Below, one piece after another: positions 705 to 64,000 of a DNA stretch of 64,000 nt. Numbering within the stretch: the stretch's first letter is position 1; the number at the start of each line of letters is the position of its first letter. The stretch is taken from the NCBI GenBank assembly GCA_965153355.1, contig OZ231126.1:9238001-9302000 (forward strand), given 5' to 3'. Below the pieces are notes generated by a model. It saw only the letters and a program-made list of their open reading frames with translations. It was not told the DNA's origin and ran no database searches. Source of the stretch: Flaccisagitta enflata. Lineage: Eukaryota. Both the position numbers and the translations under genes were made by a program.

Positions 705-1501
705 GCAGCTTGGAACGAGAAATGTCGTGAGTACTTCAATGAGAATGAGGATGAGGAGAAGGAGGAGAGGAAGAGGAAGAAGGAGAAAGAAGAGGAGGAA
801 AAGGAAGTGAGCGCAGGGATTGAGAAAGGAAGTGAGATGTCACGCTTACGTTTACGATTACGCTTGGAGGACAAGGCGCAGACAGTATCGAGGGACAATA
901 ATGGGATGAGAACAGAGTTGGAAGAGGAGGAGGAAGAAATGGAAGTGGATGATCTTGATCGGTCTGATGATCCCGATTATGATCCTGAATTTGTCGACGA
1001 ATGCTTGGAAGATTCAGAGGAGGATTTTGAGGAGGAGTTGGAATGGGATTCGAAAAATCTGGGGCTAGCCCTGGAAGGCGTGTCGACAGAGAAAGAAAAG
1101 GAGAAAATGGAGGTAGTTGCCTTGTTATAACTATAAATTGTGTTTTAAGGATATCTTGCGCGCATGTTTTTAGGTGCGACAAAGCACCTCTGTAACTGGC
1201 TGTGTCTGTTGCTAAGTTGGTCTGTTTGTCGGGAACGCATTTGTTCGACGATCAACCCGTCGCACCTTATTGGCCTACTTGGCCTAGTTTTTATGCGCTG
1301 AATTTATGCTCAATTTGCGCGTTGGTAATGAGTTCAGTATTATCTTGTAGGAATTTCAAAATGAGAAAAATTTGGAGCATTTCGACATTTTGGTGGGTGA
1401 AGAGGAGAGAGTTGCCTGCCGTCTTTGCAATGCACGAATCCTGTCCAATATAAAATCACTCGCTAACCATTTGAAACTGCAACATGGTTAGACTTAACTA
1501 C

Positions 1502-4500: not shown

Positions 4501-7027
4501 TAATTCTTTACTGGGGATGAAATTCCAAAATCGCTCTGATGAGTCTAATTATATTGATATAAGTTTCCATTCTCTACCTTATATGTTTTTTTTTTTTTTT
4601 TTGCGGTGAAGGCTGTAGGGGGGGGGTGCCACAGTTTTTGGGGGGATAACTTCTTGTATTTCACTTTCGTCTGTAGATGTATCTAAAAGAGTGTGTCTGT
4701 AGGTCTGTCTGTTGAAAGAATGTTTAAGATTTTCTCTTTGATCAGGTTGGGGAGGTGGAGGCTCTAGTGCTTATTCATATTTCTCCCCCCCCCCCCTCCC
4801 CTTTTTTTCACATTTCGCCAGAGATCCAGTTGGTTGCTCCGACACGAGAAAGAAGTTCATGGAGAATTTGATTTCCATTGTCCTGAACCAGATTGTAATC
4901 AGTCTTTCAGGTGTAAAAGAAATCTCATTATGCACAGCAATACGCACAAGACGATCAAACCTTTCCAATGCATGTGGTGCGAATTTACCGGTAGGTTTAA
5001 GGGTGATTTTTTTTGTCAGGCGGAAGTAGCTTTTTAAGTATTATTACTCCAAATTATGTTGTGCTGTGAGCACCAAAGGGCCATAGTTTATATCAAAATG
5101 ATTAAACACGATCTCATTTGAAATTTCTGAGGCACATATGGTACTTTTTTACGAAATTTCCCTCATTTTTTCCCTTTTATTCATGCTTAAAATAGGTCAG
5201 AAAAAGCGTGATTTTTGTGTGATGAGGCAAATTTGCCAAATATTTATCAATAACAATGGAATAAATATTGTGTTTCAGCCCCCATTCTAACCTAAAAGTT
5301 GTTTTCCAGTAATACGAGTTAAAAAACTAAAACTGTTTCATTGAAAACAGCTGTTACAGCGACTTACTAATGCAAGCGTCTTAACTAAAATAATACATTA
5401 TCTTTATGACATCTGACAAATGTGCAAATCAATGCCCAATACGCTCACACTGCATATAAAAATCGCTACAATGTTTTCGATCATGTAGTGTGAAGGTATA
5501 TGAGGCAGCTGAAATGATCAGGACATAGTTAGGTTCTGTTTTGACTATATTGGCGTGGTTGCAAGAGTTTCTGACATTAAGACACTTGGGCAAATAATTG
5601 TCACACATAAGTCACACTCCCATATTTACCCTACTGCACACAAGACAGAGATCTGACTTGTAATATACCTCCCTCACCCATTAATATTCCCACCTTTGTC
5701 ATTATGGTCATTGCATGTATCAAAACATGTAGAAAAAAAGCCTAAAGGTCAATATCGGGAGTTTCTGACATTAAGACAGATGTCTGAAACTCCAGACTTA
5801 GAGAAAAAATGTCAAATTTCTTCCAAAAAAAAGTTATTTTGACACCATGGTATTTAGACGTTTTATACGATTTGGAATTGAATAAGCTACATTTTTTGGT
5901 TGAATTTTTTCCACTTTCACCACCCTGACCCCGTCAGTTGAACCCACTTTAGTCAAAAAAATACATTTTTTGAAGATTTGATATTTAGACGTTTCAGAAA
6001 ATTTGGAATTGAATGAGCCTATCTTTATTTTTGGCAAAAAAATTGTCTTTTGGGGTGAGTGCCCCTGCCCCAGTCCACCCCCAGCCCATTAAGGTCAACA
6101 AACCCAAAAAACGTATAGCGAGAAAGTTGGACTACCTGCCCAGACAGAGAAAAAAGTATTTTTTCCAGTTTGAAAATTGACGATTTTTTCATTTCTACTT
6201 CCCCCTGATTAAAAAAATCACCTAAGTTGAAGTCAGGTTGAGTGAGATCTCGCGCATGCTTGAAAGGTTTCAGTCACTTTGGGTACGGCATTTTAACAAT
6301 GGCCAAAAAAAAAACCGGACGCTGTTTTTTCATTAAGGATTGCTCAGTAACTAAGAAAGACAAACCCTTAAAATCCATGTTGGTTTTAAAGATCTTCAAA
6401 ATATCTTTCATTTTAGCTCTCACAGAACATTGTAGCTTCAGAACTTTAGAAGTTATGATGCTTTAAAGATAACCAGATAACCACTCAGAAATCTCGAATC
6501 TGGAATCAATCTTTTTAGAGTAACCAACTTTGAATTAATATAGCTTGTAAACAAAGAAGAATCATGATTTCTGCATGATTCCATCTTGTAGAGAATAAAA
6601 GATACTTCAATTTTACCTTGAATTCAATTCCATTTATTTGATTTCTTTATTGTACACAATATGTGAAACAAACAAGCCCAACAGGCCAACAGTCGCGTGC
6701 TAAGTTACACAAAACTACACAACTTCATACTACACACAACTACATAACTTCATACTACATACTTACTACATACTTACATACTACATACTTACTTACATAC
6801 TTACATACTTACATACTAACATACTTACATACTTACATTATTACATACTTACCTAATTACATACTTACATATTTACATACTTACATACATACATACTTAC
6901 ATATTTACTTACATACATACATACTACATACTTACATACTTACATACATACATACATACATACATACTTACATACTTACATACATACTTACTTACTTACA
7001 TACTTACATACTTACATACATACTTAC

Positions 7028-7058
<31 letters not shown>

Positions 7059-8677
7059 CATACATACATACATACTTACTTACATACTTACATACATACA
7101 TACTTACATACTTACATACTTACATACTTACATACATACTTACTTACATACTTACATACTTACATACTTACTTACTTACATACTTACATACTTACATACT
7201 TACCTACATACTCACATACTTACACACTTACCTACTTACATACTTACATACTTACTTACATACTTACATACTTACATACTTACTTACCTACATACTCACA
7301 TACTTACATACTTACATACTTACATACTTACATACTTACATACTTACTTACATACTTACATACTTACATACTTACATACTTACATACTTACATACTTACT
7401 TACATACTTACATACTTACTTACATACATACATACTTACATACTTACATACTTACATTCTTACTTACATACTTACTTACATACTTACTAACATACTTACA
7501 TACTTACATACCTACATACTTACATACTTATGTACTTACCTACATGCTCACATACTTACATACTTACCTACTTACCTACTTACATACTTACATACATACT
7601 TACTTAATGAAGCTTATGTTTACATGCTCAAACAATTAAGGCCACCAAGGCATTGCGTTAATGCTTTAAGGCCACTAATGCACAAAATTACTCAAAAAAT
7701 ACACATGTCCAAAAATACCCAAAAATACCCAAAAATACCCATATATACCCAAAAATACCCAAAAATACTAAGAATTTATTAAAAAACATCAAAAGTACCT
7801 ATAACTACCCGAAAATACCTGAAAGTACCCTAAAGTACTTTAAGTACCTAGAATAACTTAAGTACCCTAAAGTGCCCTAAAGTACCCTAAAGTACCCTAA
7901 AGTACTCAAAATTAATCAAAAATCATCAAAACTAGCTAAAGGTACCCAAAAATACCTAAAAGTACCCTAAAGTACCTTAAGTACCTAAAATAACTTAAGT
8001 ACCCTAAAGTACCCTAAAGTACTCTAAAATACCCTAGATTACCTTAAATTACCTTAAAAAAACATAAAAAGTCATAATTTCAAAAATGTGACGGACGGAC
8101 CGACGGACGGACCTACCGACCTACCGACCGACACGGCAAAGTGTAGAGTCGCGTGCACGCGACTAAAAATGTCTTATTGTCAGGCACAGTAATTTGCTTC
8201 CAAGAAAATGGGTGTTGAATTTCAATTTTATGTCATTTCAAAACAACTTAAGCTAGAAGTTTCTGCTTGGTCTTTAAAATGCTCATGGATTTTAAGTAAA
8301 AAGTATGTGCAGTATTCAGTCAATCATGAAAAACTGAGCGTCCGGTTTTTATTTTGGCCACTGTTACGACAAGTCTGTTCCCAGTTCATTTGTGATATGG
8401 AATCTCACAACTGACCATGCGAAAAATTGCACTTGCTTTTCTTTTTTGGTTTAAGTCAGCAATTTGATAAAGTTAAGTTCTGTTTGATGCCCCAGGTGGA
8501 CAGTATAACAACATCCGATCGCACGCTTTGACCTCGCACAAGTTGGAATTCCAAAAGGCTCGAGAGAAGAGGGACAGATATTGGCGTCGTACCGCTGGCG
8601 TTGATAATAAACAATGGCCCTCCGCTGACGTTGTCAATGAACAATTGCCATCCGCTGTTGTTGACGATAAAGGATGA
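705..8677 (+). CDS. ZF-A: multi-exon C2H2 zinc-finger protein (8 fingers), 5' part unresolved, C-terminus cut by an insertion
   Basis: Phase-compatible GT-AG exons 705-1112 (acidic), 1351-1486 (CRLC..HLKLQH), 2701-2823, 3277-3432, 3748-3877, 3972-4032, 4822-4990 (CPEPDC..HSNTH, IKPFQCMWC), 8496-8677 (YNNIRSHALTSH). Exon boundaries match paralogs ZF-B/C/D. TGA at 8675-8677 is created by the insertion starting at 8676. Confidence 0.85.
1172..1287 (+). mobile_element. Short HINE (Helentron-associated, DINE-1-like) element
   Basis: Sits in a T-run; 5' hairpin AGGTGCGACAAAGCACCT, GGTC/GTCT-like repeats, 3' inverted copy GTCGCACCT then GGCC-tactt-GGCC stem-loop. Related copy in reverse at ~32408-32534. 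Confidence 0.7.
1757..2304 (-). mobile_element. Nested HINE-like elements including the GGGCAGCGGCCCC inverted-repeat family
   Basis: GGGCAGCGGCCCC (~1832) pairs with GGGGCCGCTG (~2184); internal GCCTCAA/TTGAGGC repeats; ends in GAGTAGCGTACATGCGACTAAAAA. Homologous to ~57490-57890 and to copies in 43680-46430. Confidence 0.6.
4262..4673. mobile_element. Foldback Tc1/mariner-type MITE
   Basis: TA|CAGACAAAAGTGAAATACAAG ... CTTGTATTTCACTTTCGTCTG|TA; near-palindromic throughout; TA TSD. Confidence 0.85.
5001..6222. mobile_element. Non-autonomous TIR transposon, PIF/Harbinger-like (TAA TSD)
   Basis: TAA|GGGTGATTTTTTTTGTCAGGCGGAAGTAG ... CTACTTCCCCCTGATTAAAAAAATCACC|TAA. Removing it restores an intron start resembling the ZF-C equivalent (gtaagttaaactttgagtcagg at 36079). 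Confidence 0.7.
6281..8382. mobile_element. Degenerate TIR element hosting a nested HINE; superfamily and exact ends uncertain
   Basis: TAACAATGGCCAAAAAAAAAACCGGACGCT (~6294) is the inverse of AGCGTCCGGTTTTTATTTTGGCCACTGTTA (~8337-8366); CTTAAAATCCATG/CATGGATTTTAAG also pair. Confidence 0.6.
6671..8169 (-). mobile_element. HINE expanded by internal (TACATACT)n and (AAGTACCCTA)n arrays
   Basis: Perfect palindrome AGTCGCGTGCACGCGACT+AAAAA at 8147-8169 next to GACG/GACC repeats; AACAAG..GGCC..AGTCGCGTGC at the other end; arrays at ~6750-7610 and ~7710-8055. Confidence 0.75.
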
Positions 8678-11600
8678 GTGCTTATCACAGAGAAATTCGC
8701 GATTTCTCTACATCGTGGCCGTCATTGTCTTTTTGTCTGTTGAACTGGTAGTCGACTTAGGGGATATTTTCTCCTAACCTTTACTAGATGTCAGGCTATG
8801 GTTTGACACCAGGCCCGTTAACCTCAAGTCATTTTCAGCTGGCGTTGAGACTGGAATTATTGTTATGTGATATTTGTGATAAAATATCCTAACGCCGATC
8901 GTTCACTAGTTAAAAATACTTTACGTGCAAAGATTGTGCATTAAAGCTCAGAATCCTTTCACCCTGTGGTGAGATGTGTTGTGATGTATAGGTTAGGACT
9001 TTTCTTTGATTGCTTAGGTGTTGGAGCACCCACCGAAGATGTGTTGTGATTTTGAGGATTTTCATGAATTTAGCTAAAAAAGAGTGTAAGAGGGTAGGAA
9101 CTTATGTAATTTGACTGTTTCTTAGAAGAAATGATGCTATTGGGAGTCTATGTGGCAAACATTTCAGTAGTAGTCCAATAACTAGTGGAGATTTGAAGCT
9201 AAAATCAACTAAGTATGAAAAACACCCATAAGTAGGGTGGTTCACTCCTTAAAGGGAAAAGGTCATGAGTAATTTTTTTTCAAAAATTAGGTTTTTAAGG
9301 TAGGATATGATATTTTAGATTGCTCTGAATACTCCCAAGTGGTTTTCAAGTACTTTGATAAAAAAATTGAGTCAAAAATCATTAAAAACACGCAAAACGC
9401 AAGTATGCTACACAGAAAAACTTGCCGTTTTTAACATTTTTGCTGATTTTTTTTTCAGTATTTTTTGACTGAATATGGATTTGAATGCTGTTTTTAAGTT
9501 CACTAGGTCCTACTTGACAGGTAAATTCAATCAAAATTTTTTTTTGTTTCGGGTCCATCTGTTTAAAGAGTGCTTATCACAGAGAAATTCGCGATTTCTC
9601 TACATCGTGGCCGTCATTGTCTTTTTGTCTGTTGAACTGGTAGTCGACCTAGGGGATATTTTCTCCTAACCTTTACTAGATGTCAGGCTATGGTTTGACA
9701 CCAGGCCCGTTAACCTCAAGTCATTTTCAGCTGGCGTTGAGACTGGAATTATTGTTATGTGATATTTGTGATAAAATATCCTAACGCCGATCGTTCACTA
9801 GTTAAAAATACTTTACGTGCAAAGATTGTGCATTAAAGCTCAGAATCCTTTCACCCTGTGGTGAGATGTGTTGTGATGTATAGGTTAGGACTTTTCTTTG
9901 ATTGCTTAGGTGTTGGAGCACCCACCGAAGATGTGTTGTGATTTTGAGGATTTTCATGAATTTAGCTAAAAAAGAGTGTAAGAGGGTAGGAACTTATGTA
10001 ATTTGACTGTTTCTTAGAAAAAATGATGCTATTGGGAGTCTATGTGGCAAACATTTCAGTAGTAGTCCAATAACTAGTGGAGATTTGAAGCTAAAATCAA
10101 CTAAGTATGAAAAACACCCATAAGTAGGGTGGTTCACTCCTTAAAGGGAAAAGGTCATGAGTAATTTTTTTTCAAAAATTAGGTTTTTAAGGTAGGATAT
10201 GATATTTTAGATTGCTCTGAATACTCCCAAGTGGTTTTCAAGTACTTTGATAAAAAAAATTGAGTCAAAAAACATTAAAAACACGCAAAACGCAAGTATG
10301 CCACACAGAAAAACTTGCCGTTTTTAACATTTTTGCTGATTTTTTTCAATATTTTTTGACTGAATATGGATTTGAATGCTGTTTTTAAGTTCACTAGGTC
10401 CTACTGGACAGGTAAATTCAATCAAAATTTTTTTTTGTTTCGGGTCCATCTGTTTAAAGAGTGCTTATCACAGAGAAATTCGCGATTTCTCTACATCGTG
10501 GCCGTCATTGTCTTTTTGTCTGTTGAACTGGTAGTCGACCTAGGGGATATTTTCTCCTAACCTTTACTAGATGTCAGGCTATGGTTTGACACCAGGCCCG
10601 TTAACCTCAAGTCATTTTCAGCTGGCGTTGAGACTGGAATTATTGTTATGTGATATTTGTGATAAAATATCCTAACGCCGATCGTTCACTAGTTAAAAAT
10701 ACTTTACGTGCAAAGATTGTGCATTAAAGCTCAGAATCCTTTCACCCTGTGGTGAGATGTGTTGTGATGTATAGGTTAGGACTTTTCTTTGATTGCTTAG
10801 GTGTTGGAGCACCCACCGAAGATGTGTTGTGATTTTGAGGATTTTCATGAATTTAGCTAAAAAAGAGTGTAAGAGGGTAGGAACTTGTGTAATTTGACTG
10901 TTTCTTAGAAAAAATGATGCTATTGGGAGTCTATGTGGCAAACATTTCAGTAGTAGTCCAATAACTAGTGGAGATTTGAAGCTAAAATCAACTAAGTATG
11001 AAAAACACCCATAAGTAGGGTGGTTCACTCCTTAAAGGGAAAAGGTCATGAGTAATTTTTTTTCAAAAATTAGGTTTTTAAGGTAGGATATGATATTTTA
11101 GATTGCTCTGAATACTCCCAAGTGGTTTTCAAGTACTTTGATAAAAAAATTGAGTCAAAAATCATTAAAAACACGCAAAACGCAAGTATGCTACACAGAA
11201 AAACTTGCCGTTTTTAACATTTTTGCTGATTTTTTTCAATATTTTTTGACTGAATATGGATTTGAATGCTGTTTTTAAGTTCACTAGGTCCTACTTGACA
11301 GGTAAATTCAATCAAAATTTTTTTTTGTTTCGGGTCCATCTGTTTAAAGAGTGCTTATCATAGAGAAATTCGCGATTTCTCTACATCGTGGCCGTCATTG
11401 TCTTTTTGTCTGTTGAACTGGTAGTCGACTTAGGGGATATTTTCTCCTAACCTTTACTAGATGTCAGGCTATGGTTTGACACCAGGCCCGTTAACCTCAA
11501 GTCATTTTCAGCTGGCGTTGAGACTGGAATTATTGTTATGTGATATTTGTGATAAAATATCCTAACGCCGATCGTTCACTAGTTAAAAATACTTTACGTG

Positions 11601-11920
11601 CAAAGATTGTGCATTAAAGCTCAGAATCCTTTCACCCTGTGGTGAGATGTGTTGTGATGTATAGGTTAGGACTTTTCTTTGATTGCTTAGGTGTTGGAGC
11701 ACCCACCGAAGATGTGTTGTGATTTTGAGGATTTTCATGAATTTAGCTAAAAAAGAGTGTAAGAGGGTAGGAACTTATGTAATTTGACTGTTTCTTAGAA
11801 GAAATGATGCTATTGGGAGTCTATGTGGCAAACATTTCAGTAGTAGTCCAATAACTAGTGGAGATTTGAAGCTAAAATCAACTAAGTATGAAAAACACCC
11901 ATAAGTAGGGTGGTTCACTC
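8676..11920. mobile_element. Non-coding composite insertion A-B-A-B-A-B-A with 4-bp TSD GGAT
   Basis: A (572 bp, GAGTG...CACTC): 8676-9247, 9568-10139, 10459-11030, 11349-11920. B (318-320 bp): 9248-9567, 10140-10458, 11031-11348. GGAT at 8672-8675 and 11921-11924. The ZF-A reading frame resumes after the insertion. Confidence 0.92.
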
Positions 11921-12489
11921 GGATTGCCCTCTACTGGCGCCGGCGTTGGCATAGACGATGAACAATAGCCATCCGCAAATATAGACGATGAGTCTTAATA
12001 TATCCACGTCATTACATACACAATTTTCTTTCGCGATTTGATGGAGATTTGATTTTGAGCATCACATACTTCCCTACCTCTCTTCAATTTTGTCCTTAGT
12101 TTGGTGCTCTTAATCATTTCAAACTTTGCTTTGGGTCATTCCCGGGCCATTCCAGCATCAGACCTGTACATCTTGCTTTCCTTCCGAGTAGCAGATATTT
12201 TTCCTGAAAATCTTCCGGCAAATCAAACTATGCTTTCATATGCTAGACTTAGACTCGAAAGTTTTCCTAGGTCAGTCAGTAGCTCAATCTTTTGCATGGA
12301 CCTGCTCAGCGCTTTCAATAATGCACGTTTCAAATTTCAAGGTTCTGGCTCAAATACTTTAGAAGTTATGAGCATTTGTTTGAACCATATCAAACTGAAA
12401 AAGTTCCAAGAGAATTTTTAAACTTTCTTTGAAAATATGGCCGGCAGTGAATTTCAACAGAGTCCAAGTTTCTTGAAAAAAAAGTAAAG

Positions 12490-12860
12490 TTACAGGATTT
12501 TGGATCTAGGCAAATCAAACAATTTCCTATTGATTGCACCCTACTTTTAAAAACCATTTCTTAAAAAAATATTTTGTGATTTTTTTTTTTAAGTCCCTAT
12601 CGTGCGGAACAAAAATTTTCTAAGTTTTTTGAAAAAAAAATGAAAATACAAGATTTTGGATCTAGGCAAATCAGAAAATTTCCTATCGATTGCACCCCAC
12701 TTTTAAAAACCATTTTTCAAAAAAATATTTTGTGGTTTTTTTTTTCTAAGTCCTCAACGCGTGACACAAGAATTTTTTAAGTTTTTTTGAAAAAAGTTAA
12801 AATGCAAGATTTTGGATCTAGGCGAATCAAACAATTTCCTATCGATTGCACCCCACTTTT
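12490..12860. repeat. ~157-bp tandem repeat, 2-3 copies, probably inside a transposon remnant
   Basis: GATTTTGGATCTAGGC.AATCA.A.AATTTCCTAT.GATTGCACCC recurs at ~12496, ~12651 and ~12808. Confidence 0.7.
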
Positions 12861-16277: not shown

Positions 16278-18369
16278 ACGCACGCACACACACACACACA
16301 AACAGACAAGCGCGCACTCACTTTTCTCAATGTCATTTTTCTTCATCACACAACAAATTTTTCCAGATGGGAGAAAGCCAAAGTTGGCCTTTCTTCCGCG
16401 GACGACCAATCTTTGGCAAAATTCCTTCTGGATTTGTACTTCAAAAAAGGCACCGGAGCTCCATTCAAACGATGTCGATGCGGCGCCACCAGACTTTCGA
16501 TTGAAGATGATGATGACGACGTCGACGGCAATTTGCTGAACCGCGTCGTCGACTCCAACGCCAATTTAGAGTCTACTCCAAACGACGGAGGCGAATTACG
16601 GTACGTTAAATGGTACTACTGCACGGCTTACGAGCAAATGGTGCAACTTCGAGCGTCATTTGATGATTTATTCAAATTATGTAATTTGTTAGTCTCCTGA
16701 GTCTTGATATCCATTACTGGGGGGTTCAACTGTATTTCTATTAATTTCAGACTTGGTGACGCCTCGAGCGCGAAAAACCTATCGGTTAAAGTCGAGATCA
16801 AAGAAGAAGACAAAACAGCGAGTGATGATTGTGTCATCGCAGATTACATCGCTAAAACCAGACGGGGCGCAGTAAAGCGGAGAAAATCTTCGGGAACTGC
16901 CGCTGATGAGAACGCCGGATGTGAGAGCCCTGGTAGCAATGGAAAGGGCGAAATTAGTCGCGACAGAAAAATTAATAGCCCTGGTAGTAGCGAAAAGGAC
17001 AAAGCTAGTCACGACAGCAAGATAAATAGCACAATCTATAAAAGCAAGAATAGTCATAGCATAAATGACTCAACCCTCGACGTGGATTCTTCCAATGCAG
17101 TCATGTTGCGGGCGCCGGAAGTGGAAACTTTGACTTCTACAGATGCTGAAACATTAGCGTCTCTCACGGCCTGGTGGAATAGCTATGCGTGTGCAAGCGT
17201 GATTGGTGAAGTCGATCATGGGAAAGGCGGTGGCGAGAGGTTGGCAGATACAATTGGTGGTGCGGAGGTAAAGGTGGTTGTTGACTCAAAGAACCACTCG
17301 TGTCTCGCGAAGACCGAGAAGCTCACCAAGAATGGCAAAAAAATGGGGAGACCGAAAAAGATTCCGACGAAACGCGGGCGATATCCACGAATTAAGAAAA
17401 TCGTTTCCTCGTCCGTGGGAAGGGAAAAAGAAAACTGTCAAAAGAAGGAAATGAAAACTGAAAATCTTTCGGAAATAAAGGCAGTTGAGAATACAGGAGA
17501 CGCCTCTCATTTGCGGTTTAAAAACTCTGAAAATAAAGCCAAAAGCAAAAATGATAGTGATAATGATGAGGGTGACGATTGTGGCGGTGGAAAGGAGATC
17601 GTAGCATATCCATTCGCTATTACATTTGGATCAAGTCAGGCGGAAGAGGAGGAGAAGGAGAGGAAGAAGAAGGAGAGAGAAGAGGAGGAAAAGGAAGTGA
17701 TTGCCGGGATTAAGAAAGGAAGTGAGAATTCACGCTTACGTTTACGGTTACGTTCAAAGGATAAAGCGCAGACAGAATTGAAGGACGAGAATGGAATGAG
17801 AACTGAGTTTGAAGAGGAAGAGGAGGAAGAAATGGAAAAGGACGATCTTGATGGGTCTGATGATCCCGATTATGATCCTGAATTTCTCGTTGATGAGCGC
17901 TTGGAAGATTCAGAGGGAGATTTTGGCGAGTCGGAATGGGATTTGAAAAATCTGGGGCTAGTCACGGAAGTCGCGTCCAAAGAGAAAGAAAAGGAGGAAA
18001 CGGAGGTAGTCGCCTTGTTATAGCTATGAATCGTGTTTTGCGGGTTTTAATGTAATATCTTGCGCGCATGTTTTTAGGCGTCTTAAGTCATTTTAAGTCA
18101 ATTTGAGTCATCCTAAGTTATTAATGTCCCGCACGCAACTTATAGGTGTTGGCCTTGTTTTTATGCGCTGAATTTATGCTTAATTCGCGCGGTGGTATTG
18201 AGTTAAGTATTCTTTTATAGGAATTTCGGAATGAGAAATATTTGGAGCATTTCGACATTTTGGCGGATGAAGAGGAGAGAGTTGCCTGCCGTCTTTGCGA
18301 TGCACGAATCCTGTCCAATACAAAATCACTTGCTAACCATTTGAAACTGCAACATGGTTAGACTTAACT

Positions 18370-26266: not shown

Positions 26267-26377
26267 AGACTGTAATGGTGCAGCGAAAAGTTCCGGCTGA
26301 ATTGTACAGACGTCCATTTGTTTTTAGAAATTGATCATCAGTCTTATCAGATGTAAAATGATATTTGATAATTGATA

Positions 26378-27005
26378 CAGTACCTTCCAAGCAAACCCGG
26401 CTAAAACTGGAGGATTAATTTTTGTTACTTTGATTTAATTTCCCAAATTTCATTTTTTGTATGTAACCTAATTAAAAGATACTTAATTCCTTGAACATAT
26501 TTGGCTGTCAAAAAAAATAACTCGTGAAATCAAAGTGCATGAAGACATCAATATGGATATCATGGAGTGTTCTAACCCAGACCATTGGATTCGGCAGAAA
26601 ATTTTTACCTATCCAAGACTACAAGAACAATTCAATCAAACAATTATTTCAGGTTTTACAGCTATTTTAAGTTTTTAAGGACAATTGTCTTAAAATGATT
26701 TAGGACAATTGTCCTTAAAAATTTTAAATGGCTATAAAACCTGAAATGATAGTCTGCTTGAGCTGTTCTTGTCGTTTAAGATTGGTAAAATTTTCCGCTG
26801 AATCTATTGATCTGGGTTAAAACACTTCATATTGATGTTTTCATGCACTTTGATTTCACGAGTTATTTTCTTTTACAGCCAAATATGTTCAAGGAATTAT
26901 GTAACTTTATATTAAGTTAGATACAAAAAATGAAGTTTGGAAAATAAAATTAAAGTAACAACAATTATTCCTCCAGTTTTAGCCGGATTTGCTCCGAAGG
27001 TACTG
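26378..27005. mobile_element. Foldback Tc1/mariner(pogo)-type MITE, copy 1
   Basis: TA|CAGTACCTTCCAAGCAAACCCGGCTAAAACTGGAGG ... CCTCCAGTTTTAGCCGGATTTGCTCCGAAGGTACTG|TA. Confidence 0.9.
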
Positions 27006-27204
27006 TACCATCAATCTGAACAAATGTAGTGTGTCCATGAAATTTCATTTGCTGAATCGTTTCGTGGCTTTTTTACCGGGTCATTGCAATAAAGCTGGGC
27101 ATAAAAACTTTTTTCTGTATGTATGTGACTGATTTTTTTTACTTTTTTTTCAGACTCAGTCAAAGCAAGTTTAAATACTGTTCAAATAAAAATTCACTTC
27201 CACG

Positions 27205-27384: not shown

Positions 27385-27536
27385 AAACCGAGAAAAGACA
27401 TTTTTGTGTGTCAGATTCAAGGGTTCAGCGAACACGGACATTAAAGACGTACCGCTGTGTCTTCGAAAGATCTCTTGTCGTCTCCAGAACTGTCTTAATA
27501 AATCCCAATAAGATATTTAACACATAACTCAGCAGA

Positions 27537-28108
27537 AGTGGGAAAAGTAAAAAGCTTACAATCCTAAACGCAACCAATCAGTGATTTCAAATCATTTTTC
27601 TCTTGTAGTATTATGTTTGACGTTTTTTGTATAAAAATTTTATTGGTCTAGCCTTAATAGTTTGTCCACAACATCAATTTTAAGTAAAACAAGTATGTAA
27701 AGTTTGAGCTGAAAAACCCTTATTTTAATCAGGATAGTTTTTCTTTTTACTGCTCTAATTTCTAAACGGTTTGAGCTAAAAATGCCAGATTGGTCTCAAA
27801 TGAAGTATAATTTGAAAATGCTTACATCTGAGACCATTCTGGCACCTGTTATCAAGCCGTGTGAGAATTAAAGGCAAAATATTGAAAAACAGTGTTGATA
27901 AAAATATGCGTTTTTAAGTCTCAACTGTAAACACTTGTTTTACTTCAAATTTATGTTGTGGACTAACTATTTGAGCTAGACCAATAAAATTTGAACACAA
28001 AAATCGTCATATATATTACTACAAGAGAAAAATGGTTTGAAATCACTGACTGGTTGCGTTTAGGATTGTAAGCTTTTTACTTTTCCCACTTTGAGATTGA
28101 ACACCCTG
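27537..28108. mobile_element. Foldback mariner-type MITE, left end eroded
   Basis: AAGTGGGAAAAGTAAAAAGCTTACAATCCTAAACGCAACC pairs with its inverse at 28052-28091; right end AACACCCTG|TA. Confidence 0.8.
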
Positions 28109-29423: not shown

Positions 29424-30037
29424 CAGTAACTTCCGAGCAAACCCGGCTAAAACTGGAGGATTAATTTTTGTTAATTTAATTCCATTTCCCAAACTTCTTT
29501 TTTGTATCTAATTTAACTAAAAGATACTTAATTCCTTAAACATATTTGGCTGTCAAAAAAAATAACTTGTGATATCAAAATGCATGAAGACATCAATAGC
29601 AAGTGTTCTAACCTAGACCATTGGATTCAGCAAAAAATTTTACCTTTCTTAGATTAGAAGAACAGCTCAATCAGACAATTATTTCAGATTTTATGGCCAT
29701 TTAAAGTTTTTAAGGACAATTGTCCAAAATTATTTTGAGACAATTGTCTTTAAAAACAATAAATGCCTGTAAAATCTGAAATAATTGTCTGACTGAGCTG
29801 TTCTTGTAGTCTAGGATAGGTAAAATTCTCTGCTGAATCTAATGGTCTGGGTTAGAACACTACATAGTGAAGTCTTCATGCACTTTGATTTCACGAGTTA
29901 TTGTTTTTGACAGCTGAATATGTTCAAGAAATTAAGTATCTTTTAATTAAGTTAGATACAAAAAATATTTGGGAAAAAAAATTAAAGTCACAAGTATTAA
30001 TCCTCCAGTTTTAGCCTGGTTTGCTCGGAAGGTACTG
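29424..30037. mobile_element. Foldback Tc1/mariner(pogo)-type MITE, copy 2
   Basis: TA|CAGTAACTTCCGAGCAAACCCGG ... TTTGCTCGGAAGGTACTG|TA; same family as 26378-27005. Confidence 0.9.
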
Positions 30038-30193: not shown

Positions 30194-33100
30194 ATGGCAA
30201 AAGACAATTTCAAAGGGACTGGTGGAAGGAAAGTGAAGAAGCGTATGAAGGAGTTGACAATGAAAAGATTAGCCAAAGGCAGTGGCAGAGGAGTAGGCAG
30301 CAGCGCAGCAGATGCAGCCAGTGGCAAAGCAGGTGTAGCCAGTGGCGAAGCAGGTGCAGCCCATGACGGAGGTGCAGCCAGTGGCGGAGCAGGTGCAGCC
30401 AGTGGTGGAGCAGGTGCAGCCAATGGGGTTGGTGAAAATGGACTAGAGGTAATTACTATGTAGTGTCGTAGTGATTTTATAAAAGACTCTCTGTAACTTG
30501 TTTTTAAGCATTTTGCACCTGGCCGCTCCTACTGAGAAAATCTGAGCGAATTCAATTTCCTTTTACGCACTTCTCATGTAATGAATCATTATCAATTTTC
30601 TACAGGACTCCGAATTTGGCTCGAAGTTTGATTTTGTGAATCAACAAGATCATATCCATATTGGAAAAGAAAAGGCCAGGTAAAAATTTGTAATTTCAAG
30701 TGGCTAAATGATTTGTTAGTTTATCAGTCAATTTTTCTTAGCATATTTTTTAAAATTTTCACTGATTTAAGATGTGACTCATATGAGTACAGTGTTAGTT
30801 TACTTAACTTGATATTTTCATCAGGTGGGAGAGAGCCAAGTCGAGTTTGTCCTGCTCTTCGGACGAATCATTAGCAAAATTCCTCCTCGATCTTCATTTC
30901 AACAACCCACTGACGCAACGAGATGGTTCCGTGCAAGACGGCATAACCGACGAGAAAGAGCGTGGCAACAACGACAATGTTGGGTTTCAACTCCTTGGGC
31001 TTTACCCCGAAGAGGGTGGCGATTTCAAGCTTGTAGAGGGTGAAGATGGCGATGGTTGTGGTAATGAGTGCGATGTAAAACCTCCGCTGCCGAAACGGGT
31101 CATCACTGTGGAGATGGATGAAGAAGCTCCAGAGGATGTGAAAGTCGAAGTTAGTTCCACGGATGATTCCGTCACGATGGCGGTGCAAGCGTTGGAGCGC
31201 GAGAAGATGAGGGAAATAGCGGCCGCTTTTCAGACTGCTCTCAACGAAAGTGCTCCTCAACAATCGATAACAGTCTCAACCAACCAATCAACCATTCAAT
31301 CAACTGCCATTGTGGGCGATGAGATGTTGGAGCCAGGTTCAGATCATTTGAGCGTGATGTTTGGGGAGCCGCCAAAGAAACGAAAAAGAAGCAGTCAAAG
31401 TGGAATTGACGGAGAAACGGAAGTTGAAATTTCTTCAACGTGTCACGACGATGGGGATCTGCGATCAACTCTGATGGACTCTGATCAACCCTCTCCAACC
31501 GTGGGCAAAGGGAAGGAAACTACAACGCCAGTTTTACATGAACATTTGAGAGAGCTGACTGGGGAGTTTCCTGGGGAATTACCTGGGGAATGGCCTGAGG
31601 AGTTGCCAAAAGTAAAGCGAAAGAGAGGCCGCCCTCGCAAAACTGACGCTGAACGTGAACATGAAAAGGCGGAAAAAGCGCAAAAGGCGGCCGCCATCGC
31701 CGAAGATGATGGGTTTGAGGAGACGGTTCAGGATTACAGTGGCAGACTGAGAGTGAAGCCAAAGGAAGAGAAAATGGCCGAGGATGGGGAAGCAGATCAT
31801 GACAGCAACAAATCGGAGGTGGAAGAAAGTGAGGCTGAAAGTGCCGATTCAGATCTGGAATTCTGTTATAACAGTTGGAACAGACGCTACAACAAGTTAA
31901 AGGTATGTAGCGACAGATAATGTAGTCATGGAATTTGCAAGTTGGGTAAACGCATCGATGCAATTAAAAAAAAACAAACTGTATACTGATCATCAATACC
32001 AACCAGTTGAAATAAGTGTACAATGGATGCGGGTTTACTCTGTCACCATCTAGACATAGGTTGTGACATGCCCGAAAACGCAAGTGTCATTTGTCCCATT
32101 TGTATTTTGTTCTACAAGATTGAATGATTGATTTTTATGAGATTTTTTTAATCTCACTCGGAAACAAAAAGAAACTTTTACATTACCAATTCTTTCTATC
32201 ATTTTTGTAAGGCCCTTACAAGAAAGAGTCTTCTGAAGCATTTCGATGTTTTGTCCGAGGCTGAGGTGGTTTGTCATCACTGCAAATTGAATTTACCCTC
32301 AAGCAAAACCCCATATCTTTCCGGTCATTTGGCAAGCAGTCATGGTAAGCAATTTCTGTCTCAGTGCAGATGGTACAATTCTAAGCTATTATTCTCAAAA
32401 AAATAAAAACAAGGCCAAGTAGGCCAATAAGGTGTGGTCTGTTGATCATTGAATGGATGCGTTAACAGCCAACCAACTGACCGACTGACCAATGGACACA
32501 GCCAGTTATAGAGGTGCTTTGGCGCACTTAAAAAACAGAAACAAAACAAAAGACAATCTATGCTATTGATCAGGTTTTGAATGGCACCAATGAAGGGTCA
32601 AACACTATTCACTTCGCTTGTAAACTGACCTTTATTCGATTCTGCGTTGTACAGGCCTTGTTCGAAAGGGCGCCGTTTATAGACACTTGGTTTGCCATCA
32701 TCCGGGATGTGATTCGTCGATCAAATTTGGGTCATTACAACATTACCGAATTCACAATGAAAATTTCCACAGTGATGGTAAATTGTCTGAGCTGGATGAA
32801 ATTTGTTAGCAGGAACACCCAAACGGACTTTCTGTTCATTGCATTCTTGGTATTGCTGCCGCTGTGTGTCTGTCTCGTCCATCAATTTTTGCTTGTTTTT
32901 CCTAACAACAGACAAAATCGAAAAGATAGGGCATGACGAAGCTATTCACGGCAATGAAAAAGCGGAAAGCCGTGGACCTCAGAGGGATGAAGCCGCATTG
33001 TGTAGTATTTGCGGTGTATCCGAAAATAGCCGTAGCTCATTATTAATACACATGCGAACTCATCGTGAAAAAGTCATTTGCGCTCACCCAGGTACAAATA

Positions 33101-36100: not shown

Positions 36101-36684
36101 TCGCATTTATTCTTGTGCATGCATGCTTAGTTTGATAATGATACTTTATGGTCTGTTTGTTGTGCCTTCACGCAACTGTGACTATGCACACGCTGATTTT
36201 GTTTTGCATGAGCATTTACATCAATTGGGTAAAGACGCCACATTTTTAGTCGCGTGCACGCGACTATGACCTGCTCTGTCGGTCGGTTGATCGGTTGGTC
36301 GGTCTCACTTTTTTAACATTTTCGGCGTTTTTTTTTCATTATGGCGCCTGCCCAAATGCTTTAAAAGCCTTTTTTGTCACCGCCCCTGCCTACCCGCAGG
36401 CGACTTTGGCAGCCATGTATACGGCCTTGTTGTTTGATGTTTCAGGTGCTCAGTACAACAACATCCGATCGCACGCTTTAACCTCGCATAAACTGGAATT
36501 CCAACAAGCTCAAGAGAAGAGGGAGAAATATTGGCGCCATACACCTGGCGCAGATGATGAAGAATTGCCATCTACTGGCGTTGACAATCAAGAATTACCC
36601 TCTGCTGGCGTAGAAGATGAACAATTGCCATCTGCTGGCGCAGTCGATGAACAATTGCAACCTGTTGGCGTTGACGATCAATAA
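30194..36684 (+). CDS. ZF-C: C2H2 zinc-finger protein (8 fingers) with IGKEKARWERAK..LAKFLLDLH module, AT-hook (KRKRGRPRK) and C-terminal 10-aa repeats
   Basis: Exons 30194-30448, 30606-30679, 30825-31902, 32212-32344, 32655-32777, 32912-33091, 33584-33713, 35741-35801, 35907-36078, 36446-36684; GT-AG and phase-consistent. Confidence 0.88.
33370..33543. mobile_element. Small Tigger/pogo-like MITE
   Basis: TA|CAGTTGAGCTTCACTAGAGCGCA ... TGCGCACTAGCGGTGCTCCACTG|TA. Confidence 0.7.
34692..35036. mobile_element. Tc1/mariner (Tc2/pogo-like) MITE
   Basis: TA|CCGTATTTCTTGTAATTAGCGCCCC ... GGGGCGATAAATGCAAGAAATACGG|TA. Confidence 0.85.
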
Positions 36685-37606: not shown

Positions 37607-49762
<12,156 letters not shown>

Positions 49763-61129: not shown

Positions 61130-64000
61130 TACAGGGCTGTGTGACATACTAAGGATAGTTGTGATGGGTCCGGATTAAACACCAGTGACAGCTCCAAAGG
61201 CTCTCATCCTTAAGTAAAGTAGGGTTGAGTCGTAATGTTGTCCAACTTTCATACATTGGAACAAACTGGGTATTGTGACATACATAAAAAGATAAAGGGC
61301 TGTGTGACATACATTGGAGAAAAATTGGGTGGTGTGACATATATCAGAGAATTCTGGGCTGTGTGACACACTTTGGAGAATTCTGGGTTCTGTGACATAC
61401 ATCAGAGAAAACTGGGTCTTGTGACATACATGGGAGAATTTTGGGCTGTGTGACATATATCGGAGAAAACTGGGTGTTGTGACATACATCGGAGAATTCT
61501 GGGCTGTGTGACATACATCGGAGAAAACTGGGAGGTGTGACATACATCAAAGAATTTCGGACTGTGTGACATACATTGGAGAAAACTGGGTTGTGTGACA
61601 TACATTGGAGAATTCTGGGCTATGTGACATACATCGGAGAAAACTGGTGGTGTGACATACATTGAGAATTCTGGGCTGTGTGACATACAACGGAGAAGAT
61701 TGGGTTGCGTGACATATATTGGAGAATTCTGGGTTGTGTGACATACACCGGAGAAAACTGGGTGGTGTGACATACATCGGAGAATTCTGGGCTGTGTGAC
61801 ATACATCAGAGAAAACTGGGTGGTGTGACATACATTGGAGAATTCTGGGCTGTGTGACATACATCGGAGAAAACTGGGTGGTGTGACATACATTGGAGAA
61901 TTCTGGGCTGTGTGACATACATTGGAGAAAACTGGGTGGTGTGACATACATCGAAGAATTCTAAGCTGTGTGACATCCATCGGAGAAAACAAGGTGGTGT
62001 GACATACATCGGAGAATTCTGGGCTGTGACATACATCGGAGAATTTTGGGCTGTGTGACATACATCGGAGAAAACTGGGTGGTGTGACATACATCGGAGA
62101 ATTCTGGGCTATGTGACATACATCGGGGAAAACTGGGTGGTGTGACATACATCGGAGAATTCTGGGCTATGTGACATACATTGGAGAAAACTGGGTGGTG
62201 TGACATACATCGGAGAATTCTAAGCTGTGTGACATACATTGGAGAAAACTGGGTGGTGTGACATACATCGGAGAATTCTGGGCTGTGTGACATACATCGG
62301 AGAAAACTGGATAGTGTGACATACATCGGAGAAAACTGGGTGGTGTGACATACATCGGAGAAAACTGGGTGCTGTGACATACATCGGAGAATTCTGGGCT
62401 GTGTGAAATACATTGGAGAAAACTGGGTGGTATGACATAAATTGGAGAATTCTGGGCTGTGTGACATACATCGGAGAAAACTGGGTGGTGTGACATACAT
62501 TGGAGAATTCTAGGCTGTGTGACATACATAGGGGAAAACTGGGTGGTGTGACATATATCGAAGAATACTGGGCTGTGTGACATACATCGGAGAAAACTAG
62601 GTGGTGTGACATACATCGGAGATTTCTGGGCTGTGTGACATACATAGGAGAAAACTAGGTGGTGTGACATACATTGGAGAATTCTGGTCTATGTGACATA
62701 CATCGGAGAATTCTGGGCTGTGTGACATACATCGGAGAAAACTGGGTGCTGTGACATACATCGGAGAATTCTGGACTGTGTGACATACATTGGAGAAAAC
62801 TGGGTGGTGTGACATACATCGGATAATTCTGGTCTATGTGACATACATCGGAGAATTCTGGGCTGTGTGACATACATCGGAGAAAACTGAGGGGTGTGAC
62901 ATACATCGGAGAATTCTGGACTGTGTGACATACATTGGAGAAAACTGGGTGGTGTGACATACATGGGATAATTCTGGTCTATGTGACATACATCGGAGAA
63001 TTCTGGGCTGTGTGACATACATCGGAGAAACTGGAGTGTGACATACATCGAGAATTCTGGACTGTTGACATACATGGAGAAAACTGGGTGGTGTGACATA
63101 CATCGGAGAATTCTGGGCTGTGTGACACATTGAGAAAACAAAGCGTGACATACTTCAGACGGAGAAACTCCCAATATTTAGTGTTCCACTATCGTGGAAC
63201 ACAACTAGGTGGTGTGACATACATCGGAGAATTCTGGGCTGTGTGACATACATTGGAGAAAACTGGGTGGTGTGACATATATCGGAGAAAACTGGGTGGT
63301 GTGACATACATCGGAGAATTCTGGGCTGTGTGACATACATCGGAGAAAACTGGATGGTGTGACATACATCGGGGAAATCTAGGATGTGTGACATACATCA
63401 GAGCAAACTAGGTGGTGTGACATACATCGGAGAATTCTGGGCTGTGTGACATACATTGGAGAAAACTGGGTGGTGTGACATATATCGGAGAAAACTGGGT
63501 GGTGTGACATACATCGGAGAATTCTGGGCTGTGTGACATACATTGGAGAAAACTGGGTGGTGTGACATATATCGGAGAAAACTGGGTGGTGTGACATACA
63601 TCGGAGAATTCTGGGCTGTGTGACATACATCGGAGAAAACTGGGTGGTGTGACATACATCGGAGAATTCTGGGCTGTGTGACATACATTGGAGAAAACTG
63701 GGTGGTGTGACATATATCGGAGAAAACTGGGTGGTGTGACATACATCGGAGAATTCTGGGCTGTGTGACATACATCGGAGAAAACTGGGTGGTGTGACAT
63801 ACATCGGAGAATTCTGGGCTGTGTGACATACATTGGAGAAAACTGGGTGGTGTGACATATATCGGAGAAAACTGGGTGGTGTGACATACATCGGAGAATT
63901 CTGGGCTGTGTGACATACATCGGAGAAAACTGGATGGTGTGACATACATCGGAGAATTCTGGGCTGTGTGACATACATTGGAGAAAACTGGGTGGTGTGA
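61130..64000. repeat. 29-bp satellite with higher-order structure, continues past the window end
   Basis: Alternating GTGTGACATACATCGGAGAATTCTGGGCT and GTGTGACATACATTGGAGAAAACTGGGTG variants. Confidence 0.97.

Follow-up and report, generated by a model that had tools for sequence, protein, structure and literature searches.

A tandem composite mobile element in a zinc-finger exon of Flaccisagitta enflata with an architecture resembling that of KolobokP DNA transposons

The window analyzed here, a 64-kb stretch of Flaccisagitta enflata contig OZ231126.1 to which all statements on absence from the window refer, contains a composite mobile element that lies in the last exon of a C2H2 zinc-finger gene, extends from 8676 to 11920 and reads, as assembled, A-B-A-B-A-B-A over about 3.2 kb. 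Alignment of the copies reproduced the layout that had been proposed in an initial annotation of this DNA, with four 572-bp copies of A and three spacers B, and the interval 8672..11924 given there corresponds to the element plus both copies of a flanking GGAT. Successive copies of A start 892, 891, and 890 bp apart; in blastn comparisons, A1 to A4 are 100, 99.65, 99.48, and 99.83% identical to A1, and the B copies are 97.8–100% identical to B1. The array has a length of 3.64 units of 891 bp, and an A-B-A monomer would measure 1464 bp. The array is not listed by Tandem Repeats Finder because the longest period handled by that program is 500. No further copy of A or B was found by blastn in the window, the next matches covering 35 and 34 nt with E values of 0.10 and 3.8e-4, respectively, and exact-pattern scans of metagenome and viral contig collections gave no other copy of the element.

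The element is bordered on both sides by the terminal exon, on the + strand, of a C2H2 zinc-finger paralogue, and this location permits an exact reconstruction of the target. An uninterrupted paralogue at 36431–36681 (open frame 36250–36681) has 79% nucleotide identity to the host exon over 191 nt, and a 30-bp (10-codon) repeat is common to both. Where the host reads GGAT–element–GGAT, the paralogue has the single 4-mer GAAT, and when the element and one GGAT are removed, the 30-bp register and the reading frame are restored, with 14 more codons and a stop at about 11968. Because the paralogue has only a single 4-mer at the site and because the 30-bp periodicity is restored, the GGAT that directly adjoins the first and the last A, and that occurs at none of the inner junctions, is a genuine 4-bp target site duplication; the earlier claim of a duplication on the outside only has thus been substantiated. 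With the element in place, the left junction reads GGA TGA, which is a new stop, and the last 14 codons are lost from the host protein. The host gene belongs to a cluster of tandemly duplicated paralogues in the window (705–1130, 8477–8677, 16701–18020, 30808–31917, 36250–36681, and 39019–40515), in which acidic frames rich in serine precede C2H2 zinc-finger exons and a tail of 10-residue repeats, and among these clustered zinc-finger paralogues only the copy at 8477 bears the element.

The outer ends of A are GAGTG on the 5' side and CACTC on the 3' side, as had been annotated, and they form a perfect 5-bp terminal inverted repeat; when start and end phases of the 891-bp unit are combined in all possible ways, only 0.22% of the combinations show such a repeat. 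The element ends are therefore not arbitrary. The inverted match of the ends falls off past 5 bp (7/13), and long terminal inverted repeats are absent from the element. A second symmetry exists inside the array, as each inner A is flanked on both sides by TTAA at a distance of 1 nt (B reads CTTAAA...TTTAAA); TTAA at an equal offset of 0–2 nt from both B ends occurred in 10 of 20,000 shuffles of B and in 1 of 319 rotations. The mutual inversion of the A/B and B/A junctions, which had already been noticed and was found again at 10 of 11 positions, results from the 5-bp inverted ends together with the palindromic TTAA word.

Other placements of the borders and other known types of elements were considered and, with the exception of Sola, rejected. 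When the borders are moved to TG...CA, the target duplication is lost. When B with 5 nt on each side is regarded as a CACTA-like miniature element, the flanks give no duplication, and when A is taken for a miniature element that made a 4-bp duplication of its own inside the array, its flanks in register, TAAA and CTTA, mismatch. The ends of piggyBac elements are CCC...GGG, which the element does not have. Helitrons have no target duplication and end with 5'-TC ... CTRR-3', whereas the element has a 4-bp duplication and different ends. The initial annotation had also pointed to a resemblance to Sola transposons, which may be characterized by terminal inverted repeats, a 4-bp duplication, and GAG-type ends; the element has a 4-bp duplication, and its inverted ends comprise only 5 bp.

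The element is without coding capacity. Its longest open frame has 112 aa (10693–11031, minus strand), none of its 15 frames reached the Pfam cut-off, which agrees with the earlier view that there is no credible coding frame, and the weak sub-threshold matches of two frames to WHD_CHMP7 and DUF6756 are taken as chance. Reverse transcriptase, integrase, and transposase families were found in none of the 101 frames of the window, and the window contains no tRNA gene. Rfam gave no match at the gathering score in the whole window, and a search of 8600–10500 with E values up to 10 returned two chance-level matches, neither of which is a ribozyme. A stable or viroid-like fold of the 891-nt unit beyond what is seen with shuffles was found on neither strand (z −0.04 on the + strand, −1.12 on the − strand).

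Public sequencing runs show that the element has relatives. The 24 runs listed come from 11 studies; 20 of them contain part of the stretch, six contain half or more of it, and eight are RNA libraries, and the labels are "organism A," two runs without label, and marine metagenome for all the rest. We compared the contigs of four runs with positions 8100–9600, namely X1 and X4 (organism A; that these are DNA is a guess), the metagenome X2, and the metatranscriptome X13. The element has 27 variant places, any one of which is found in at most 16 contigs, and the contigs that align with the stretch, at identities of 90–99%, number in the thousands. The family is thus multi-copy and diverged, a conclusion that is based on the sequence diversity of the contigs and not on depth sums, and it is present as a multi-copy family in one organism and also in marine metagenomes and metatranscriptomes. 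In the unique flank (8406–8660), the word depth was 158.7–206 in X1, and in X4 it was 0 in the two leftmost of five bins and 199–236 in the other three; the summed depths of the element bins, which are not copy numbers, were 32,018–110,160 in X1 and 5,388–153,492 in X4. Just upstream of the host exon, at 8100–8405, there is a repeat whose summed depth in the runs of organism A is very high, reaching millions at 8100–8200 and 36,000–289,000 at 8202–8405; it has depth in the RNA library as well and includes a (GACC/GACG)n run at 8090–8132.

The contigs also bear on the arrangement of the units. A is joined to B and B to A by contigs in X2 and X13, and a 920-nt contig of the RNA library, a library that may also contain DNA, closes on itself after 890 nt; this self-closure fits tandem copies, circles, and dispersed A-B-A copies equally. 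Direct A-A or B-B junctions were seen in no contig of the four runs, which is uninformative, as contigs drop rare forms, and no contig of these runs spans the whole array. At the left border, an X1 contig of the flank ends exactly at 8675, and one X4 contig of 229 nt, compared with the left part of the locus, matches 8516–8675 without any difference and continues with 69 letters that do not fit the element, which hints at an allele without the insertion.

The units of the array are not completely identical, with four variable positions in A and seven variable columns in B. A1 and A4 differ at a single position of 572. Position 82 of A is T and position 453 is G in A1 and A4, with C and A at these positions in A2 and A3, and three bases are common to B1 and B3 and different in B2. 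At these variable places, all contigs of the four runs show the base of the inner copies (88–100% at 9515), and the bases of the outer units were seen in no contig, so that the center of the array carries the read-majority bases. This pattern is not predicted by stepwise unequal crossover from one A-B-A at this site, and a model with a single crossover or the integration of a circle fits it only with an extra change. The pattern could be due to a terminal redundancy that was made at mobilization or to a middle unit that recombined from another family copy, but it could also be due to inner units that were polished with multi-mapping reads. The insertion of the array as one unit is compatible with the pattern, which itself supports no conclusion on the history of the array.

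How can such a structure be explained? In the initial annotation, it was believed that the element fits no standard class, and this overstates its novelty, as an element architecture of this kind is in print as KolobokP, a group within the Kolobok superfamily (Kojima and Bao, 2022; PMC9587614). According to that report, KolobokP elements have long terminal direct repeats (LTDR) that carry their own short inverted ends (11–18 bp in the text; 1–25 bp, mostly 16–20 bp, in Table S1), termini of the type 5'-RR...YY-3', and target duplications of 3–5 bp, mostly 4 bp, with no strong preference for particular targets. Solo repeats are described as numerous, (LTDR-INT)n-LTDR multimers that are flanked by duplications also occur, and the non-autonomous families are as small as 1421–1479 bp (PMC9587614). 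The element of F. enflata agrees with this description in its (A-B)3-A arrangement with one outer duplication, in its RR...YY termini (GA...TC), in the 4-bp length of the GGAT duplication, and in being a small non-coding derivative whose monomer would have 1464 bp. There may also be a parallel to KolobokP-1_MeMe, whose internal region has TATA at its start and end (PMC9587614), as TTAA is found 1 nt from both B ends, although not flush with them. TTAA is the canonical target of Kolobok proper and is duplicated there. We consider it about an even chance that the element is a non-autonomous KolobokP-like composite DNA transposon multimer. Of the two explanations offered in the initial annotation, the one that invokes a non-autonomous DNA transposon ending in long direct repeats fits best, and only its novelty has to be taken back: this kind of element is already published and is not a wholly new class.

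In a KolobokP-like mechanism, A would represent a long terminal direct repeat with transposase-recognized ends (5'-GA...TC-3' and the 5-bp inverted repeat), and B would be the short interior, which codes for nothing. A DDE/DDD transposase acting in trans would bring together the two outer termini of the array, the left one on the first A and the right one on the last A, and the block would be inserted via a 4-bp staggered cut that results in the GGAT duplication. The multimer may have been formed before transposition, or it may have been formed later, either by unequal crossover or by a circle of A and B recombining into an A; unequal crossover and circle recombination have both been proposed for KolobokP multimers (PMC9587614). 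We infer the kinship with KolobokP, the enzyme class, and the order of events, while the architecture, the ends, the duplication, the lack of coding capacity, and the multi-copy family are direct observations. A further likeness, drawn already in the KolobokP report, exists to bacterial composite transposons and IS26-type translocatable units, in which two direct-repeat end modules move an interior and in which a circle of one repeat plus the internal region is a possible intermediate (PMC9587614). In contrast to these systems, the element resides in a eukaryotic host and has non-coding end modules.

Several points weigh against a KolobokP-like transposon. The repeat of 572 bp lies between the two published length classes, which are given as about 450 and about 660 bp, and Table S1 with its 228 families contains, as read here, LTDRs of 415–515 or 633–688 bp and none between (PMC9587614). 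The inverted ends have 5 bp and not the usual 16–20 bp, a length that is still inside the range of Table S1, and the internal region is only 320 bp long. The TTAA is offset by 1 nt, and the in-register inner flanks are not a perfect duplication. A gene for a transposase or a His-Me nuclease was found in none of the 101 frames of the window. The ends of the element are known from one locus, and the comparison with KolobokP concerns its described architecture. The described distribution comprises seven phyla, arthropods not among them (PMC9587614), which may count against kinship together with weak hints from protein neighbors in the window that lean toward arthropods, and among the literature matches listed there was no report of KolobokP-like elements in copepods or other crustaceans. 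We do not assign the element to KolobokP, because of its deviating repeat length and because a partner was not seen, and only state that it works like KolobokP.

The main rival is an LTR/TRIM-like array, that is, a tandemly arrayed non-autonomous long terminal repeat (LTR) retroelement (TRIM/LARD-like, L4I3) with A as the LTR and B as the internal region, which would have been inserted by a retroelement integrase and multiplied by unequal crossover or by template switching in reverse transcription. Arrays of the type LxI(x-1) that have a single outer duplication are known from plants, with L3I2 and L5I4 flanked by 5-bp duplications (PMC4717578), and from bivalves, with arrays up to TDR58_I57, and cestode arrays are cited in the same work (PMC6934838); these two reports describe elements that share with ours the layout, an outer duplication of 4–6 bp, the lack of coding capacity, and a monomer of <1500 bp. 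The bivalve family additionally shares an internal hairpin and, like our element, has no canonical primer-binding site (PMC6934838). A 4-bp duplication and short inverted ends would suit an integrase, and the near identity of A1 and A4 (1/572) and the presence of the unit in RNA libraries also speak for this reading. However, the repeat has 572 bp against the 100–250 bp of the TRIM arrays, and its ends, GAGTG...CACTC, differ from TG...CA. In neither orientation do the first 9 nt of B contain a TGG, and the sole one occurs at +10 in the minus orientation. A polypurine tract is not present either, with purines making up 0.4 (+) and 0.2 (−) of the final 15 nt that adjoin the 3' repeat; the initial annotation had already found all three of these hallmarks to be lacking, and we confirm this. 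A self-priming complement is likewise absent, as the best one was equaled by 290 and 299 of 300 shuffles, neither AATAAA nor a TATA motif occurs in A on either strand, and the primer site of metazoan GalEa elements (PMC5445492) is not present. The symmetric TTAA words beside the inner repeats, finally, would have no role in an LTR element. The second explanation of the initial annotation, an LTR-like element with novel termini, agrees with the layout, but it fails at the ends and at both priming sites, and we regard it as unlikely, albeit as an explanation that has to be taken seriously.

Three further rivals are less probable. A fragment that stems from an 891-bp satellite, or from an extrachromosomal circle derived from it, could have been captured at a staggered break, in which case there would be no transposon and the ends would be arbitrary. 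Unit-length contigs that close on themselves (9567 to 8676), which were seen both with a DNA metagenome and with an RNA library, would agree with this, as would the similar summed depth of A and B in X1 and X2. Such contigs also arise from dispersed A-B-A copies in a de Bruijn graph, however, and arbitrary ends would carry a perfect 5-bp inverted repeat with the low chance mentioned above; since in addition the duplication is a clean 4-bp one and the ends fall exactly where the unit has its TTAA-flanked boundary, we hold the capture of a satellite to be improbable. Slightly less probable still is a multimeric cDNA from a circular or tandem RNA, made by a retrozyme- or Penelope-like rolling circle and target-primed, whose 3' end would be fixed and whose 5' end would be due to chance. 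It could account for an array of 3.64 units, for the presence of the unit in 8 RNA runs among the 20 runs with part of the stretch, and for the self-closing RNA-library contig of unit length, with the reservation that RNA libraries may contain DNA. Plant LTR retrozymes and animal non-LTR retrozymes also have non-coding repeats of 600–1000 nt, tandem copies, and a presence in RNA libraries (PMC4918200, PMC7229834). The element differs from them in having neither a hammerhead ribozyme, or any other ribozyme that Rfam would recognize in the window or in 8600–10500, nor an unusually stable fold, and it has no A-rich or microsatellite tail; a terminal inverted repeat would, moreover, be unexpected with a chance 5' end. 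It is very improbable, lastly, that the element is real but its number of units or its inter-unit variant pattern is an artifact of assembly or polishing. No contig spans the array, and inner units with read-majority bases next to outer bases that occur in no contig are what polishing with multi-mapping short reads would give, but the B copies differ in length (320, 319, and 318 bp) and A3 has a state of its own, which is unlike a simple stutter, and multimers are common in the families compared.

If the preferred reading as a KolobokP-like composite transposon is correct, the locus can be of use beyond its own description. How the multimers originate is left open by the paper that defined KolobokP (PMC9587614), and KolobokP is named in only two papers of the literature searched. 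The locus offers a clean insertion with near-identical end repeats, an exactly reconstructable target, and the hint of an insertion-free allele, and it is thus suited to asking whether arrays move as units and whether such elements found tandem satellites. If the array were of the LTR type instead, its interest would lie in the non-canonical ends and the missing priming sites. A bolder proposal, which we put forward tentatively and ourselves rather doubt, is that the element represents a KolobokP-like type whose repeats form a third length class (572 bp), whose inverted ends are minimal at 5 bp, and whose host may belong to a new phylum, or else an independent origin of the architecture in another superfamily; the multimers would transpose as whole arrays and seed an 891-bp satellite, and the insertion in the coding exon would be recent and possibly still polymorphic.

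Table 1. Coordinates of the element, its parts, and the interrupted host frame (positions in the window).
Feature	Position	Strand	Remarks
Host open frame to the TGA formed at the insertion junction	8477..8677	+	Paralogue frame 36250–36681
Left target site duplication, GGAT	8672..8675	.	Paralogue with single 4-mer; 30-bp periodicity restored with one copy
A1, terminal direct repeat	8676..9247	+	572 bp, GAGTG...CACTC
Subterminal hairpin in A	8689..8709	.	8-bp stem, 5-nt loop; in all A copies
B1, internal region	9248..9567	+	320 bp, 29% G+C; starts CTTAAA, ends TTTAAA
Imperfect 23-nt inverted repeat in B	9366..9474	.	Arms 9366–9388 and 9452–9474; 87% complementary in B2, which has the read-majority bases at variable sites
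A2, inner direct repeat	9568..10139	+	
B2, internal region	10140..10458	+	319 bp; read-majority base at 4/4 variable substitution sites
A3, inner direct repeat	10459..11030	+	Read-majority base at every variable site
B3, internal region	11031..11348	+	318 bp
A4, terminal direct repeat	11349..11920	+	1 difference vs. A1
Right target site duplication, GGAT	11921..11924	.	
Severed tail of the host frame	11924..11968	+	14 codons and original stop; frame 2 from 11922

Other features of the window were recorded in passing. About 540 bp downstream of the element, at 12466–12860, there is a 156-bp tandem repeat with 2.5 copies and 85% identity. At 42823–47461, inverted repeats of 590 nt that are 97% complementary lie 3459 nt apart; their arms start with CAGCTGGG right after TA on both sides, as in Tc1/mariner-type elements with long inverted ends, and the frames of 151–154 aa in these arms have no Pfam match. 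Foldback-like inverted repeats at 26373–27010, 27536–28091, and 29498–29965, with arms of 183–232 nt that are 83–90% complementary and 4–272 nt apart, may represent miniature inverted-repeat elements. Among the frames of the window, a BTB frame has mostly arthropod neighbors in the Atlas, and a short coiled-coil frame has named relatives in arthropods as well as in bivalves, with identities of 68–87%. Microsatellites are very dense at 6642–7606 and in many other places; they include a (ATACTTAC)n stretch that extends over about 600 bp as well as long runs of (TC)n, (CA)n, and (GA)n at 18.3, 22.3, 28.9, 37.8–38.6, and 40.8–42.4 kb. Toward the end of the window, at 61200–63200, an array with a 29-bp period comprises about 78 copies with a higher-order pattern and is open in several minus-strand frames.

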